A stretch of 32,000 nt of DNA. Origin: Nanobdella aerobiophila. Lineage in GTDB: Archaea > Nanobdellota > Nanobdellia > Nanobdellales > Nanobdellaceae. Numbering within the stretch: the first letter of the stretch is position 1; the number at the start of each line of letters is the position of its first letter. Of this stretch, positions 5,433 through 13,861 are shown piece after piece. The notes beneath the pieces were generated by a model. The model worked only from the letters and a program-made list of their open reading frames with translations. It did no database searches and was not told the origin of the DNA. The stretch is from positions 180,001-212,000 of the forward strand of contig NZ_AP019769.1 of assembly GCF_023169545.1 (NCBI RefSeq). The letters are read 5' to 3'. Made by a program: the position numbers and the translations under genes.

Positions 5433-6766
5433 GGTTCTAATCTATTCGGATCCCTGGGAACTAATACGACTTCTTTTACATTCTCTATATTTAATAATTG
5501 TTTTATAAACCTAGATATTCCAAATCCGAAGCCTCCCATAGTGGGTGATCCATATTTAAAGAACTCTAAATAAGACTTGAAATTATCAGGATTCATACCT
5601 TTTTCCTTTATCTGATTTACTAATATACTATACCTATGCTCTCTTTGAGAACCTGTAGTAATTTCTAGACCTTTATATAATAGATCAAAACTTTTTGTAG
5701 TTGTTCTTCCATCTCTCATTGGTTCACCCTTCATATGATAGAAAGGTCTAGCAGTCCAAGGCCAATCAATTATATATACGAAATCATTTTTATAATTATC
5801 TTTAATATATTTTCCTAATATTTTTTCCCCTTCAGAGCTAATATCTCCATTATCTTTAATATTGTTTTTTCCTATAATCTCATATACATCTTCCATTTTA
5901 ATTTTTTCAAATTTTTTTGGTATTTCAATATCAACATTATATAAATTTTTTATTTTATCTTCATAATTTTCCTTTATTCTATTTAAAGAATATACTATTA
6001 GTTCTTCTTCGAGGGCCATAAGATCATAGTGCGAGGATATATAACCAACTTCGATATCAAATGATGTAAATTCTGTTAAATGCCTAGATGTGAATGAAGG
6101 TTCTGCCCTAAAGGCTGGTGCTATTTCAAATACCTTTTCAAATCCGGCACATATAGCCATTTGCTTATAAAATTGTGGAGATTGAGCCAAGTACGCTTTT
6201 TTATCAAAATATTTTAGTTCAAAGACTTCAGATCCACTCTCTGTTGCGGAGCTAATTATTTTTGGAGAAAATATTTCTATAAAATTATTTTTATATAAGT
6301 ATTCTCTAGAATATTTTATAAATTCAGATATTAGTCTTATTACAAATGATTTTTGAGGATCTCTTAGATCTATCCATCTATAGTCCATTCTCTTATCGAA
6401 ATGTGAATTTTCATCAATAGGTAGAGGTGCTGCGGGTTCATTTATTAAATATAATTCATTACATAGTACTTCTTTATATTTTTTTGATATACCTTTTATA
6501 TATTTGCCATATACGACTATGAAACTACCATTAGATAATTCTTTTATAAATTCTAGAGATCCTAGTATCTCTTTTTTTAATGTAATTTGTACCTCTCCTG
6601 TTTCATCTCTCAATATTATAAAGGATATGTCTCCAATATTTTTTATATTTATTATCCAACCAGATAATACTACGTCCCTTTCATATACCATATTATTTAA
6701 GTTTGAAATGTTTACTCTATTTTTTAGTAGTTCCAAACCTTTCTTCATATCATTTATATTTACCAT
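5429..6766 (-). CDS. aspS: aspartyl-tRNA synthetase, archaeal type (class IIb)
   Basis: N-terminal OB anticodon-binding fold (GWIINIKNIGDISFIILRDETGEVQIT). Class II motif 2 FRAEPSFTSRHLTEFTSFDIE. QSPQFYKQ. Motif 3 GGFGFGISRF. 445 aa. Confidence 0.9.
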   Translation of the reverse strand: MVNINDMKKGLELLKNRVNISNLNNMVYERDVVLSGWIINIKNIGDISFIILRDETGEVQITLKKEILGSLEFIKELSNGSFIVVYGKYIKGISKKYKEVLCNELYLINEPAAPLPIDENSHFDKRMDYRWIDLRDPQKSFVIRLISEFIKYSREYLYKNNFIEIFSPKIISSATESGSEVFELKYFDKKAYLAQSPQFYKQMAICAGFEKVFEIAPAFRAEPSFTSRHLTEFTSFDIEVGYISSHYDLMALEEELIVYSLNRIKENYEDKIKNLYNVDIEIPKKFEKIKMEDVYEIIGKNNIKDNGDISSEGEKILGKYIKDNYKNDFVYIIDWPWTARPFYHMKGEPMRDGRTTTKSFDLLYKGLEITTGSQREHRYSILVNQIKEKGMNPDNFKSYLEFFKYGSPTMGGFGFGISRFIKQLLNIENVKEVVLVPRDPNRLEP

Positions 6767-6785
6767 ATCTCTATATCCAGAGATA

Positions 6786-7454
6786 TTACTTTAAATTTTT
6801 CATTTTTATATCAATCATTGCATGTATTTCTTTATATATTATTGTTAGTTTTTTATTATAATCTATATCATCTTTTAGGTTATATACAGATAAAAAAGGA
6901 TATTTTTTGTAATTATTTATCTTTTTCTTTAATAATTTTTCTATTCTATTCATATTATCTTTTATTTCAGTTTCTAATTTTACTCTTAGTTTATCATATC
7001 CAATATCTAAATTAAAGTATCTTTTTGTATAATAATCTATAACTAATATAGGTTTTTCAAATGCATATAATATTATTGCATCTGCGGTTTCTTTTCCTAT
7101 ACCATGAATATCTAATAACTCCTTTCTAATATAATCTACTCTATTATTTATATCTATATTTTCTATAGAATCTGCAATATTTTTTATAGTTTCTAATTTT
7201 CTTGACTTAAAGGGAACTTTTATATAATTTATATCTAAGTTTTTCAAATTGTCTATATTAAATATAAAGTTTTTTGATTTTAAATATTCTATATTTTTTT
7301 CTACAAAAGACCATTTAGTATTCTGAGTTAATATAGCTCCTAATATGACTTCAATTTTCCAGTCACCTCCTGTTTTGATATGGTAGTTCAAATCTACAGG
7401 CCACCAAAGTTGTACATTACTTTCTTTAACCAATTTTATAATATTTTCTATCAT
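6786..7454 (-). CDS. HhH-GPD superfamily DNA glycosylase, endonuclease III-related (no Fe-S cluster)
   Basis: Helix-hairpin-helix LLDIHGIGKETADAIILYAF followed by VIDYYTKRYF (Asp at the expected catalytic spacing). ILTQNTKW motif. No cysteines at all, so no 4Fe-4S loop. Confidence 0.75.
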   Translation of the reverse strand: MIENIIKLVKESNVQLWWPVDLNYHIKTGGDWKIEVILGAILTQNTKWSFVEKNIEYLKSKNFIFNIDNLKNLDINYIKVPFKSRKLETIKNIADSIENIDINNRVDYIRKELLDIHGIGKETADAIILYAFEKPILVIDYYTKRYFNLDIGYDKLRVKLETEIKDNMNRIEKLLKKKINNYKKYPFLSVYNLKDDIDYNKKLTIIYKEIHAMIDIKMKNLK

Positions 7455-9565: not shown

Positions 9566-9877
9566 TTATTCAACCTTTTCGACTTTTACCTTTTCATCCT
9601 GTTTTATCTCTTCTGGCTCCGGTTCTTCACCAGATTTTATTGAGTATACAGCTTTAGAGATAATCCATATTTGTCCCATTGCTTTTACCAATTGGTGTGG
9701 AGCTATAATTCCCTTTATCCCTCTTTTTATCAGATCTTGATCTAGTACTCTAATTTTCCATCCATAAATTTTATTACCCGATATAATAGCATCTTCTACT
9801 TCCCCTAAGAAGTATCCGTCTTCAGTATATATCTTTGCATTTATTGTCTCAGATATTTTTTTAATATTTAATGCCAT
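9566..9877 (-). CDS. PRC-barrel-like small protein with acidic C-terminal tail
   Basis: AKIYTEDGYFLGEVEDAIISGNKIYGWKIRV fits the PRC-barrel pattern (V.t.dG..lG.v.D..id...i..l.v). Tail is SGEEPEPEEIKQDEKVKVEKVE. The track ORF extends to 9973 but that would overlap the cdc48 start. I use Met-33 (ATG complement at 9877). Confidence 0.5.
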   Translation of the reverse strand: MALNIKKISETINAKIYTEDGYFLGEVEDAIISGNKIYGWKIRVLDQDLIKRGIKGIIAPHQLVKAMGQIWIISKAVYSIKSGEEPEPEEIKQDEKVKVEKVE

Positions 9878-9952
9878 AAGAGAAAATAATCTATTAGATA
9901 ATTTAAAGTTTTCTATATTTATATTTAAAAGATATCTGTTGATATAGTATCT

Positions 9953-12346
9953 ATGGATAATAATTCGAACCATGAAGATGTTCCTGAAGTAAAAATGAAG
10001 GTTGCAGAGGCATTACAGAATGATTTATATAAAGGTATTGTTAGATTGGATACTGAAGCTATGAAAAAGATTGGTATAAGAATTGGAGATGTAGTAGAAA
10101 TAGAAGGTAAGAAAAAAACAGTTGCTATTGCCCAAATGTTGCCTCCAGAAGATTATGGGCTAGGAATTATTAGAATGGATGGTATTATTAGGAAGAATGC
10201 TAATGCAACATTGGGGGGATATGTGACAGTAAGAAAAGCTTCAGTTAAAGAAGCTCAAAAAATAATATTAGCTCCATCATCTAAAGGTGTAACCTACCAA
10301 TTTTCTCCAAGTTATATAAATTATATAAAAAGGTTATTAATTGGTAGAGCTGTATTAAAGGGAGACAATTTGGTTATAGTTCCAAGTTATAGGAAGAAAT
10401 TTGATTTATTAGATGATTTTGAGATTACATTTGTTGAAGGTTTATTTTCTATGGGATTTTCGAATGAATTAAGGTTGACTGTAGTAAATGGTCTACCAAA
10501 GGGAGCATTAGTAATTACAGAAAACACAGAAATAGAATTATTACCTCATGCTGTAGAATCGAAAGGAGAGCTACCTGAAGTAACTTATGAAGATATTGGT
10601 GATATGGATGAGGTTGTACAAAAAGTAAGAGAATTAGTGGAATTGCCATTAAAATATCCAGAATTATTTGAAAGGCTTGGCATAGACCCACCAAAAGGTA
10701 TATTATTATATGGACCTCCAGGTACAGGTAAGACTTTATTAGCAAAAGCCGTAGCAAATGAGAGTGGAGCATATTTTATAGCAATTAATGGACCTGAAAT
10801 TGTTTCTAAATATGTCGGGGAAAGTGAAAAGAAATTGAGAGATATATTTGAAGAAGCTAATAAAAATGCACCTGCGGTAATATTTATAGATGAGATAGAC
10901 GCAATAGCTCCTAAAAGAGATGAGGCAGTAGGAGAAGTAGAAAGAAGGTTAGTTGCCCAATTATTGACCTTAATGGATGGTTTAAAGGCAAGGGGTAAGG
11001 TAATAGTCATAGCAGCAACTAATAGACCTGATGCTGTAGATCCAGCATTAAGAAGACCCGGAAGGTTTGATAGAGAAATAGAGGTACCAGTTCCAAATGA
11101 ACATGGTAGATATCAAATATTGAAGGTACATACAAGAAATGTTCCTATAGGAAAAATAGTAGAAGATAATGGAAAAAAGATATATACTTTATTAAATGAA
11201 AAAGAAAAAGACGAATTGATAAGAAAGTTGGCATCTATAACATACGGCTACGTAGGTGCAGATCTTTCTGCTTTAGTTAAAGAAGCAGCTATGAATGTTA
11301 TTAGAAGGATATTACCAGAAATTGAAAGATATGGAGATAAAATACCAGATGAACTATTAGAGCAGATGGTTGTTACAGAAGAAGATTTTATGTCTTCATT
11401 AAAATTAGTTCCACCATCTGCAATGAGGGAAGTATTGGTAGAAGTTCCGAAGGTTAGGTGGAATGATATTGGAGGATTAAAGGAGATAAAACAGCAATTA
11501 AAAGAATCGATAGAATGGCCAATAAAATATAGAAAAATATATGAAAAAGTAGGCATAGACCCACCAAAAGGTATATTATTATATGGACCTCCAGGTACAG
11601 GTAAGACTTTATTAGCAAAAGCCGTAGCAACGGAAATAGGTGCAAATTTTATAGCTATAAAAGGACCTGAAATATTCTCAAAGTGGTTTGGAGAGAGCGA
11701 AAAAATGGTTAGAGAGATATTTAGAAAGGCTAAACAAGTAGCACCCTCCGTGATATTCTTTGATGAAATTGATGCGGTAGCACCAAGAAGAGGAATAGCA
11801 CATAGTATAGATGTATATGATAGTATAGTAAATCAATTATTAGCAGAAATGGATGGTATTACGACAAAAGGAGATGTAGTTACAATAGCAGCAACTAATA
11901 GACCAGATATATTAGATCCAGCATTATTAAGACCTGGAAGACTTGATAGAATAATATATATACCAGCGCCAGATTATGAATCAAGATTGGAAATATTAAA
12001 GATAAAAACTAGGAGTGTACCACTAGCTAAAGATGTTAGTTTAGAGGAGTTGGCTAGGATAACTGAGGGTTATAGTGGTGCAGATTTAGAATTATTAGTT
12101 AAAGAAGCAGCTATGAATGGACTTAGAAAAATATATAATGAAATTAAGCTTGACAATGATAGTGATCAAGAAACTCTGAAGAAAATAGAAGCATTAAATA
12201 TATTTATAACTATGAGCGATTTCAGAGAAGCACTGAACAGGGTCAGACCATCAATAACTAAAGATATGGAAAATTATTACAAAACCTTCACAGAAACATT
12301 TAGAACTAATATATTGAATAATAATTCAAATAAGTATTATGGATAG
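9953..12346 (+). CDS. cdc48: Cdc48/VCP/VAT-type AAA+ ATPase (N domain + D1 + D2)
   Basis: N domain LKVAEA-like start ([31 protein letters not shown]). Two AAA modules each with [15 protein letters not shown] Walker [19 protein letters not shown] Walker [19 protein letters not shown] second region of homology. C-terminus ends KYYG (HbYX-like). An alternative start is Met-14 (9992). Confidence 0.95.
10679..10757 (+). repeat. 79-bp perfect direct repeat, copy 1 (Cdc48 D1 Walker A region)
   Basis: ggcatagacccaccaaaaggtatattattatatggacctccaggtacaggtaagactttattagcaaaagccgtagcaa is identical base-for-base to 11552-11630. Confidence 0.95.
11552..11630 (+). repeat. 79-bp perfect direct repeat, copy 2 (Cdc48 D2 Walker A region)
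   Basis: Identical to 10679-10757. The offset is 873 bp (291 codons), so the copies are in frame. Both encode [26 protein letters not shown]. Confidence 0.95.
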
Positions 12347-13043
12347 TTTTTTTATTTCTCAAAGATTATTTTTTGGCGATAAATTAAATGAAAGAATTTT
12401 TAATTCTTCAGCTACGATAGTTGGTTTAGGGGGTTTGGGGTCTTGGATAGCGGAAATTTTAACTAGAATTGGTATAAAAAGGTTAAATCTTGTAGATTTT
12501 GATATTGTTGAAGAAAAAAATTTGAATAGGCAAAATTTCACTTTAAAAGATAGGAAGAAATACAAAATTGATGCTATAGAGGAAAGATTAAAGGAGATAA
12601 GAGAGGATATAGATATAAAAAAATATCAAAAGATTCATGATGATATTTTTGATACTGATATATTTTTTGATGCAGTGGATGATATAAATACAAAATTTTT
12701 ATTAAACGAATACTCTGTTTATCTAAATAAACCTTATATATTCGGGTCTGTTGTTATGTCAGAGGGGTATGTAGGTTTAATAAATCCAAAGGATTTTTGT
12801 TTTTATGACATATTCTCTAACAAAACTAACTTTATGACCTGTAATTTGTATGGTGTAGATCCTGCTTCTGTAATATTCGCATCATCTTTAATGGTTGAAT
12901 TATTTTTAAAATATTTAGACAGATATAATAATGGAATTCTATATCATTTTAATCTAAAAAGATTTGATTTGTATGAAGTAAAGGTTAGGAAAAATAATTG
13001 TAAAATATGTGTAAGGAAGGAATATGAAAGAATATGGAAATAA
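12339..13043 (+). CDS. ThiF/MoeB/HesA-family E1-like adenylyltransferase
   Basis: Rossmann/ATP motif IVGLGGLGSWIAEILTRIGIKRLNLVDFDIVEEKNLNRQ aligns with E. coli ThiF IIGLGGLGTPAALYLAGAGVG..DDDDV..SNLQRQ. Candidate catalytic-loop Cys in MTCNLYGVDPA. C-terminal CKIC. The first zinc CxxC is degenerate (FCFYD). ATG lies inside the last codons of cdc48 (8-bp overlap). Confidence 0.8.
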   Translation: MDSFFISQRLFFGDKLNERIFNSSATIVGLGGLGSWIAEILTRIGIKRLNLVDFDIVEEKNLNRQNFTLKDRKKYKIDAIEERLKEIREDIDIKKYQKIHDDIFDTDIFFDAVDDINTKFLLNEYSVYLNKPYIFGSVVMSEGYVGLINPKDFCFYDIFSNKTNFMTCNLYGVDPASVIFASSLMVELFLKYLDRYNNGILYHFNLKRFDLYEVKVRKNNCKICVRKEYERIWK

Positions 13044-13861
13044 TAGATATAATAAATGAAATAAAGAAGAAAGATAATCTAAGAAATGTTTCTGATAAGG
13101 TAGTTGAAAATATAGTAAGGAAGGAATTAAAAAAGAGGCCATATTTATATGATAGACTATATAATATAAGAAACGTAAAACAATTAAAAAATGATCCAGA
13201 TTTTTATTTATTTTTTAAAGAAGTAAGAAAAATATTACATGATATATATGAAGTATTTTCTATTGACCAAAATATTCAAAATATTATATTTGATGAAGAA
13301 TTAAGTCTAGAGCAGAAGATAATTAACCTACTAATGTCAGCTAAATCTACAGCTGAAAGGTTAAATTTCTATAAAGAAGTATATGAAAATATATTTATAG
13401 ACGAACCAGATGAGATACTGGATCTTGCTTCAGGTTTGAATCCACTATCTATATTTTTTTCTGATAAAAAGCCCAATAAATATTATTATACGGATATTTC
13501 TGAAGAAATACTTGATATAAATTATCAGATTTTAAATATTCTGAATGTAGATAATGAAGGTTGGTTGATAGATCTATTCGAACCAGATGAAAGAATATAC
13601 AAACATTATCAATACATATTCTTTTGGAAAATATTTCCTTTATTGGAAAAATATGATTATTATTTACCAAGGAATATAATAGCAAATCTAGATTTTGATT
13701 ATTTAATTATTTCATTTTCACAAAAAAGTATCGGAAAAAGGAAGAATATAGGATTAGCATGGAGATATAAAATAAAAAGGTTCTTCCTATATAAATTAAA
13801 TTATAAAATAATAAAAGAATTTGATATACCTTATGAGTTTTTTATGATTGTAAAGAAATAG
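13034..13861 (+). CDS. FmrO-family (ArmA/RmtB-like) putative 16S rRNA (guanine-N7) methyltransferase
   Basis: Segment-by-segment resemblance to ArmA/RmtB as I recall them. N-terminal KKKDNLRNVSDKVVENIV vs ArmA KKYENLDSDIVEKVV. SAKSTAERL..FY..VYENIF vs HSSTNERVATLNDFYTYVF. SAM motif ILDLASGLNPLS vs LDFGCGFNPLAL / LDIACGLNPLAL. FFWKIFPLLEKYD vs FLLKMLPVLKQQD. LIISFSQKSIGKRKNIG vs FVISFPIKSLSGKEKGM. 10-bp overlap with the E1-like gene. Not verified by any search. Confidence 0.6.
   Translation: MEIIDIINEIKKKDNLRNVSDKVVENIVRKELKKRPYLYDRLYNIRNVKQLKNDPDFYLFFKEVRKILHDIYEVFSIDQNIQNIIFDEELSLEQKIINLLMSAKSTAERLNFYKEVYENIFIDEPDEILDLASGLNPLSIFFSDKKPNKYYYTDISEEILDINYQILNILNVDNEGWLIDLFEPDERIYKHYQYIFFWKIFPLLEKYDYYLPRNIIANLDFDYLIISFSQKSIGKRKNIGLAWRYKIKRFFLYKLNYKIIKEFDIPYEFFMIVKK

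Follow-up and report, generated by a model that had tools for sequence, protein, structure and literature searches.

Two described systems, UbaA-SAMP2-NcsA of Haloferax volcanii and TtuC-TtuB-TtuA of Thermus thermophilus, combine a rhodanese-less E1-like enzyme with a carrier ending in Gly-Gly, a PP-loop thiolase and a cysteine desulfurase; both are tRNA 2-thiouridine pathways. Cdc48 of Thermoplasma acidophilum activates its 20S proteasome through a C-terminal hydrophobic-Tyr-X (HbYX) tail (PMC3493965). Relatives of UbaA/TtuC, of Cdc48 and of the 16S rRNA methyltransferases RmtC, Sgm, RmtB and ArmA are encoded by three overlapping genes in the stretch analysed here, 32,000 nucleotides of the thermoacidophilic, ectosymbiotic archaeon Nanobdella aerobiophila (Nanobdellota) (G000:C1:180001-212000, hereafter the window), whose genome is a single contig of 668,961 bp with 24.6% GC and 94.8% completeness. 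As a whole, the locus is quite probably best explained by three separate housekeeping functions, each belonging to a known system, in a family-specific juxtaposition that accompanies genome compaction and is not a functional module.

The first gene of the trio (9953..12346, forward strand) encodes a Cdc48/VAT-type AAA+ ATPase of 797 aa, with a CDC48_N and CDC48_2 N-domain followed by the D1 and D2 AAA modules. The second (12339..13043, forward) encodes a 234-aa ThiF/MoeB/UbaA-type E1-like adenylyltransferase (PF00899) without a rhodanese domain, hereafter the E1, and the third (13034..13861, forward) a 275-aa FmrO/Rmt-family S-adenosylmethionine (SAM)-dependent methyltransferase-like protein (PF07091). 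The cdc48/E1 junction was read as ...AAG TAT TAT GGA TAG, giving Cdc48 the C-terminus K-Y-Y-G. The codons TAT TAT GGA (12335..12343, forward) encode a Tyr-Tyr-Gly tail of the HbYX or Y-Phi type. The E1 ATG (12339-12341) combines the end of the last Tyr codon with the beginning of the Gly codon, and the E1 start and the Cdc48 stop share 8 nt (ATGGATAG, 12339..12346, forward). The methyltransferase start and the E1 stop overlap by 10 nt according to the open reading frame (ORF) positions (13034..13043, forward). No earlier start codon was found in either downstream frame by the ORF check. A preliminary description, made from the sequence alone, had given the same coordinates, both overlaps, the E1 start within the Tyr-Gly codons and the same three identities; the ORF positions and the junction sequence bore out the former, and the profile matches the latter.

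We compared the locus with the family Nanobdellaceae/Nanopusillaceae (19 genomes including that of Nanobdella, in four genera) and with a wider set of 41 genomes, 22 of which lie outside the family. The nearest relatives were Nanobdellota strain YN1 and Nanopusillus acidilobi, with Nanoarchaeum equitans more distant. Of the 18 other genomes in the family, 17 had the trio with its gene order intact, across the four genera; the sole exception was a genome with a completeness of only 65%. The junction string TATTATGGATA[AG] was invariant at 16 of 18 family loci, in three genera, so the overlap, on whose presence in relatives the preliminary description had made its interpretation depend, is kept. 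In the fourth genus, one genome has a 23-nt spacer in its place and the other a different start. At the E1/methyltransferase junction, the orthologous family loci that reach it overlapped by 1 to 19 nt. Translational coupling via termination-reinitiation is plausible for overlapping pairs (PMC6728339); the trio probably forms one transcript, with the downstream genes translated in this manner.

Such overlaps are common in the genome. In a census based on simple ATG-only ORF calling, 162 of the 435 same-strand neighbour pairs (37%) overlapped, 19 of them by 8 nt, and 33 runs of at least three genes were chained by overlaps. Moreover, the block L18e-L13-S9-PRC barrel-Cdc48-E1-methyltransferase-Hjc-PolD-methylase-SpoIIM was collinear across the family, and the trio was conserved no more strongly than its unrelated flanking genes. 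Twelve E1 loci were fetched from other families, and none of them had a Cdc48 or FmrO match less than 1.5 kb from the E1. Outside the family, the FmrO homologue is encoded at a different place in the genome, and it is also present in genomes that gave no match to the E1 query. In a genome of another family in the same order (G019), the E1 and a gene for a ubiquitin-like protein (Ubl) form a pair ~3.4 kb downstream of cdc48, on the same strand but behind four unrelated genes. No Cdc48-E1 operon of DPANN archaea came up in a literature search on the subject. The preliminary description had taken the "obligatory co-expression" of unfoldase and E1 as a hint of a shared role. The overlap and its conservation stand; a shared function does not follow from them, since overlaps are frequent in this genome, the flanks are equally syntenic and the genes are not adjacent outside the family. 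In compact genomes, co-directional overlapping genes are in general poor evidence of a shared pathway.

The E1 matched PF00899 (ThiF) with 148.8 bits (cut-off 28.1), and the genome has no other ThiF-family gene. Among the NCBIfam models, those of ThiF scored best (TIGR02356, 111 bits; PRK08644, 103 bits), and the UbaA model aligned to residues 17-228, nearly the full length. MoeB, ThiF and TcdA of Escherichia coli, taken from the annotated K-12 record, served as references for the alignment and the tree. The E1 retained the GxGxxG motif (GLGGLGS), NLNRQ and DxxD (D111/D114), all aligned with those of MoeB and ThiF. The crossover-loop cysteine, which we take to be C187 in MoeB, C184 in ThiF and C188 in UbaA, is Cys168 in the E1. 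It was also found in P0006, P0009 and P0010 and was absent in the orthologues P0012 and P0013. The AlphaFold2 model of the E1, built with a 44-sequence alignment, had a predicted local distance difference test (pLDDT) score of 95.1. In a Foldseek search of the PDB, this model was most similar to ThiF in the ThiS-ThiF complex (1zud, TM 0.85-0.86) and to MoeB in the MoeB-MoaD complex (1jw9, TM 0.84, rmsd 2.0), with UBA5, MccB and Uba4 following. In the maximum-likelihood tree, the Nanopusillaceae E1s formed their own well-supported clade in a basal polytomy with other ThiF/MoeB-type groups. The placement relative to UbaA was taken from hidden Markov model scores only, since the tree contained no UbaA or TtuC reference.

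The automatic annotation of the Joint Genome Institute names a 61%-identical orthologue "tRNA A37 threonylcarbamoyladenosine dehydratase", and the TcdA model NF011696 indeed scored 48.9 bits on the E1 (cut-off 304). On that reading, the E1 would be a Ubl-independent, TcdA-type tRNA ct6A37 dehydratase, and would form an RNA-modification pair with the methyltransferase. However, the match to the TcdA model (residues 11-94) and those to TcdA chains in the PDB (residues 11-93) were confined to the N-terminal Rossmann part, whereas the ThiF, MoeB and UbaA models span most or all of the protein. The fold search placed ThiF and MoeB first, and no TcdA chain was among the top matches listed. The E1 retains the cysteine positions of MoeB and ThiF, the first three of which are not occupied by Cys in TcdA, and E. 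coli TcdA formed a separate, very long branch in the tree. In G019, the orthologous gene shares an overlap with a Ubl gene; outside the family, the methyltransferase gene has no linkage to the E1 and occurs in genomes without an E1 match. We consider a TcdA-type function very improbable, and the automatic label is unsupported by the alignment, fold and tree. The E1 is a diverged MoeB/ThiF/UbaA-type adenylyltransferase and is not TcdA-like, which agrees with the ThiF/MoeB assignment made in the preliminary description.

As had been noted before, the window holds no beta-grasp protein ending in Gly-Gly and no JAMM gene. The genome as a whole encodes one ThiS-family ORF, located ~293 kb from the trio; the protein has 68 aa and the C-terminus SVSGG. 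No other ORF of 41-140 aa in the genome ends with GG; one ORF of 40 aa does. Its best matches were ThiS models, with SAMP2 matching weakly, and all scores were below the equivalog cut-offs. A single PP-loop ATPase of 305 aa with zinc-ribbon ends scored 159 bits with the Pyrococcus TtuA model and 158 bits with the NcsA model, and a SufBD-SufS cluster includes the cysteine desulfurase SufS. The genome-wide search suggested earlier for a Ubl, NcsA and proteasome subunits thus found all of them: a Ubl ending with GG, one TtuA/NcsA-type thiolase and the alpha and beta subunits. In terms of the Ubl-dependent tRNA 2-thiouridine pathway, all three parts (E1, Ubl and thiolase) are present, each in a single copy.

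The gene context in relatives is the strongest functional evidence for a role in thiolation. In G019, the orthologue of the E1, with 34% identity, shares 4 nt with the gene for a 67-aa SAMP2-like protein, which is 58% identical to the Nanobdella Ubl and also ends with VSGG. In G026, a MoaD-like Ubl gene directly adjoins the E1, and in five further genomes (G023, G027, G033, G036 and G037) the Ubl gene immediately precedes that of TtuA/NcsA. In the set of 41 genomes, the E1 and the Ubl usually co-occurred. Of the 22 genomes from outside the family, eight had both E1 and Ubl, nine had neither, four had the E1 only (two of these matches being weak) and one had the Ubl only; relatives are not independent samples in such counts. 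TtuA/NcsA-type genes were found in 38 of the 41 genomes. With the E1 overlapping the Ubl gene, or the Ubl adjoining the thiolase, in relatives, the Nanobdella protein is best read as a sulfur-carrier activator of the TtuC/UbaA type.

Most likely, judging from sequence comparisons, the E1 activates the sulfur carrier for tRNA 2-thiouridine. It would adenylate the C-terminal Gly-Gly of the single 68-aa SAMP2/TtuB-like protein, and sulfur from SufS would convert the adenylate into a thiocarboxylate. The latter would feed the single TtuA/NcsA-type PP-loop enzyme, which in turn would form 2-thiouridine in tRNA, at U34 or m5U54. The preliminary description had named RNA thiolation as one of two possible roles and had drawn on the neighbouring methyltransferase in its favour. 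The role itself is well supported by the Ubl, the thiolase and the adjacencies in relatives; the methyltransferase lends it nothing, as it is unlinked outside the family. A 669-kb symbiont would thus have its Ubl-dependent sulfur relay still complete, with the E1, SufS, a single Ubl and a single thiolase, after losing nearly all biosynthesis. The assignment may also be of use in annotation, where orthologues are now labelled "hypothetical", "HesA/MoeB/ThiF" or, wrongly, TcdA.

Two further observations concern the thiolation genes. The TtuA/NcsA-type gene (G000:C1:427500-429860) also belongs to an overlap chain, with overlaps of 8 nt and 4 nt, together with unrelated genes: a 145-aa ORF and a 338-aa AAA_22/ExeA-like ATPase that has a winged-helix end. 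We also observed one RumA/TrmA-like m5U methyltransferase, in a 414-aa frame (G000:C1:382140-382658), which is compatible with m5s2U54 and is not decisive. Elp3 was not found in the genome.

The best NCBIfam scores of the E1 came from ThiF models and those of the Ubl from ThiS models, as would be expected if the two proteins were remnants of thiamine (ThiF-ThiS) or molybdopterin (MoeB-MoaD) biosynthesis. Those scores, however, are all below the equivalog cut-offs. MoaE was not found in the genome, and its sole match to the ThiG family was rejected as triosephosphate isomerase, a TIM-barrel cross-match, leaving thiamine and molybdopterin roles without partner enzymes. This is in line with the expectation, expressed in the preliminary description, that such pathways would be lacking. 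In addition, the Ubl gene adjoins the thiolase gene in relatives, and thiazole in archaea generally comes from the Thi4 route, not from ThiS. A biosynthetic remnant is therefore scarcely credible, and sulfur-carrier activation for tRNA thiolation remains our preferred function of the E1.

Several observations weigh against the explanation favoured here. The E1 is shorter (234 aa) than its counterparts in the UbaA/TtuC systems and highly diverged, and it scored under every NCBIfam equivalog cut-off, e.g. 71.7 bits with the UbaA model NF047750 against a cut-off of 450. Its family occupies its own long branch, and the nearest relatives beyond the family are ~33% identical. In the degenerate zinc site, the first CxxC is C154-x-x-D157 (CxxD) in all family members, and only C221-x-x-C224 is kept. 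No rhodanese-domain (TtuD-like) protein that might carry the persulfide was found in the genome, nor was a JAMM deconjugase, in which Nanobdella differs from the UbaA/TtuC systems. TtuA/NcsA-type genes also occur where the E1 and Ubl queries both found nothing, so thiolation in the class need not depend on a Ubl. In contrast to those systems, the E1, Ubl and thiolase genes are scattered in the family, and the E1 is joined to cdc48 by an overlap. Finally, the Cdc48-E1 adjacency persists in four genera, even where the overlap is lost, and the two genes are ~3.4 kb apart in G019; a functional reason for their proximity is conceivable.

Cdc48 matched TIGR01243 with 1081.6 bits (cut-off 802.65), and Pfam assigned CDC48_N, CDC48_2, two AAA and two AAA_lid_3 domains. 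A tblastn search with Cdc48 against the whole 669-kb genome found no second classic AAA gene (PAN, CdvC/Vps4), and second matches of PAN size were detected in only 4 of the 41 genomes. The genome encodes proteasome alpha and beta subunits. As the only classic AAA ATPase in the genome, Cdc48 is presumed to be the proteasome ATPase. We must also note that the cdc48 gene contains a perfect 79-nt in-frame repeat (10679-10757 and 11552-11630), which spans the Walker A segment in both D1 and D2. The 300-nt stretch around it has an overall identity of only 75%, a pattern suggestive of intragenic gene conversion.

The Tyr-Tyr-Gly tail fits the C-terminal HbYX pattern [LVIMGAPFYW][FY]x, as given by Forouzan et al. 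2012 (PMC3493965), and corresponds to the Y-F/Y motif defined for the human 20S by Opoku-Nsiah et al. The C-terminus was [KRQ]-Y-Y-G in 18 of 18 family orthologues, and most class-level relatives end with Y-[LFMV]-G, which indicates that the tail is under selection. The loose pattern was matched by 49 of the 697 ORFs of at least 100 aa in the genome (~7%), and for this reason the argument is based on conservation and not on a single match. The HbYX-type tail recognised in the preliminary description is hence confirmed in the published pattern and in the whole family. According to Forouzan et al., PAN-less archaea always carry a Cdc48 with the HbYX motif (PMC3493965), and by that rule the Nanobdella tail would dock on the 20S proteasome. 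The likeness to the Cdc48/VAT-20S pair of T. acidophilum comprises a single N-D1-D2 Cdc48, the lack of PAN, 20S alpha and beta subunits and a hydrophobic-Tyr-X tail. The tails differ in being Tyr-Tyr-Gly in Nanobdella and Leu-Tyr-Leu in T. acidophilum. Moreover, the class-wide tail is mostly Tyr-hydrophobic-Gly, with the invariant Tyr in the third-last position and not in the penultimate one as in HbYX. By analogy, docking of Cdc48 on the 20S via Tyr-Tyr-Gly is most likely, and would represent a known principle in a new lineage. The Nanobdella proteasome would then rely on a single AAA+ unfoldase.

The alpha subunit (G000:C1:74108-74827, reverse strand) keeps the segments F-S-P-E-G-K and I-E-K-I, which we take to hold the HbYX-pocket residues Pro17, Gly19 and Lys66 of T. 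acidophilum. It has M-E-R where, as we assume, T. acidophilum has the gate segment Y-D-R. In G019, the cdc48 gene (G019:C5, L036 ~6250-7380) carries a LAGLIDADG homing-endonuclease intein in D2, the ORF comprises 1254 aa and the C-terminus is S-Y-L-L.

In the haloarchaeon H. volcanii, the turnover of sampylated TBP2 requires UbaA, Cdc48-type ATPases, JAMM2 and the 20S proteasome (PMC4895103), and SAMP2 and UbaA serve tRNA thiolation and conjugation alike (PMC4048286). By comparison with this system (UbaA, SAMPs, Cdc48, JAMM2 and 20S; Fu et al. 2016, PMC4895103), the E1 of Nanobdella could also conjugate the SAMP2-like protein to lysines without E2 or E3, as haloarchaeal UbaA does, and the co-expressed Cdc48 would unfold the targets into the 20S, the gene linkage reflecting a shared pathway. 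The E1, a Ubl ending with GG, a single YYG-tailed Cdc48 and the 20S are all encoded, Cys168 is present in the crossover loop, and Cdc48 and E1 are adjacent in all four family genera and within ~3.4 kb in G019. However, no JAMM/MPN+ protein was found in the Nanobdella genome with PF01398 and PF14464 (E up to 0.1), and PF14464 matched nothing in the family's 18 other genomes, which include two single contigs of 94-95% completeness. P0012 and P0013 lack the loop cysteine. The contexts recurring across families are E1-Ubl and Ubl-thiolase, not E1-Cdc48, and the trio is conserved no better than its unrelated flanks. We think such a minimal tagging and unfolding axis, the other role put forward in the preliminary description, unlikely: its components are encoded, but nothing supports it specifically, and JAMM was not found in 19 family genomes. 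A complex prediction with the Cdc48 N-domain and the Ubl gave a score of 0.00, which yields no verdict and counts neither way on binding.

The E1 and Cdc48 genes of Nanobdella are even co-oriented and overlapping. In contrast to the haloarchaeal system, there is one Ubl only, JAMM/MPN+ was not found in the family, and the linkage is restricted to one family, in which unrelated neighbouring genes are conserved equally well. One could go further and see in the cdc48-E1 operon a stripped-down, JAMM-less Ubl degradation system. A single Ubl would act both as a sulfur carrier and as a tag, attached by the E1 alone and consumed or recycled by Cdc48 at the 20S, and the overlap that places the E1 start in the codons of the Cdc48 tail would fix the ratio of tagger to unfoldase. 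We regard this as quite unlikely; if true, no smaller ubiquitin-like proteolysis system would be known, and a cultured DPANN archaeon would offer a tractable model of it. The explanation by three separate housekeeping functions in a compact genome remains preferred.

Two observations pertain to JAMM-type proteins. A regular-expression search of all ORFs for the JAMM motif (H-x-H...S-x-x-D) returned two matches, aEF-1alpha and a GH57 enzyme, which were rejected as chance hits. In the distant relative G033, a second E1-like gene in a 426-aa frame (G033:C1:42665-43745) adjoins a weak JAB-domain match; this pair may be a separate conjugation or defence-type module that is absent from the family of Nanobdella.

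The third protein matched PF07091 (FmrO) with 37.4 bits against a gathering cut-off of 27. A phmmer search of the PDB retrieved RmtC (6cn0, E 3.5e-7) and Sgm (3lcu, E 1.4e-6), with full-length alignment. Its SAM-binding segment DLASGLNP aligned with the D-x-G-C-x-L-N-P segment of the family. By these comparisons, the protein is distantly homologous to RmtC, Sgm and RmtB, methyltransferases that form m7G1405 in 16S rRNA. With RmtC, Sgm, RmtB and ArmA it shares the FmrO match, a similar size, the D-x-x-G-L-N-P motif and an N-terminal helical region followed by the methyltransferase domain. It differs from them in scoring far below the cut-off of the generic Rmt model NF000466 (96 bits against 250), in being chromosomal and in being widespread in the class. 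FmrO homologues were found in 27 of the 41 genomes and 13 of the 26 genera of the class, and in none of 14 well-known control genomes. The chromosomal location and the occurrence in 27 genomes of the class argue for an inherited housekeeping gene and not for acquired aminoglycoside resistance. The protein is probably an intrinsic methyltransferase of small-subunit rRNA, a target suggested by its homology.

The archaeal character of the window was evident from the neighbouring genes for L18e, L13, S9, Hjc and the PolD large subunit, and Rfam and tRNA scans of the window found no RNA genes. A run of seven T (12347..12353, forward) was read immediately 3' of the Cdc48 stop, within E1 codons 3-5. 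Oligo-T is a termination signal for archaeal RNA polymerase, and the run may act as a partial terminator that attenuates expression of the E1 and the methyltransferase. Relatives have an oligo-T run of up to T6 after the cdc48 stop, or none at all. Upstream, a PRC-barrel-like gene (9566-9973, reverse) and cdc48 (9953, forward) overlap head-to-head by 21 nt as called, and this divergent pair is kept throughout the family and also in G019. At the other end of the trio, the methyltransferase gene shares a 20-nt 3'-end overlap (13842-13861) with a convergent hjc-like gene.

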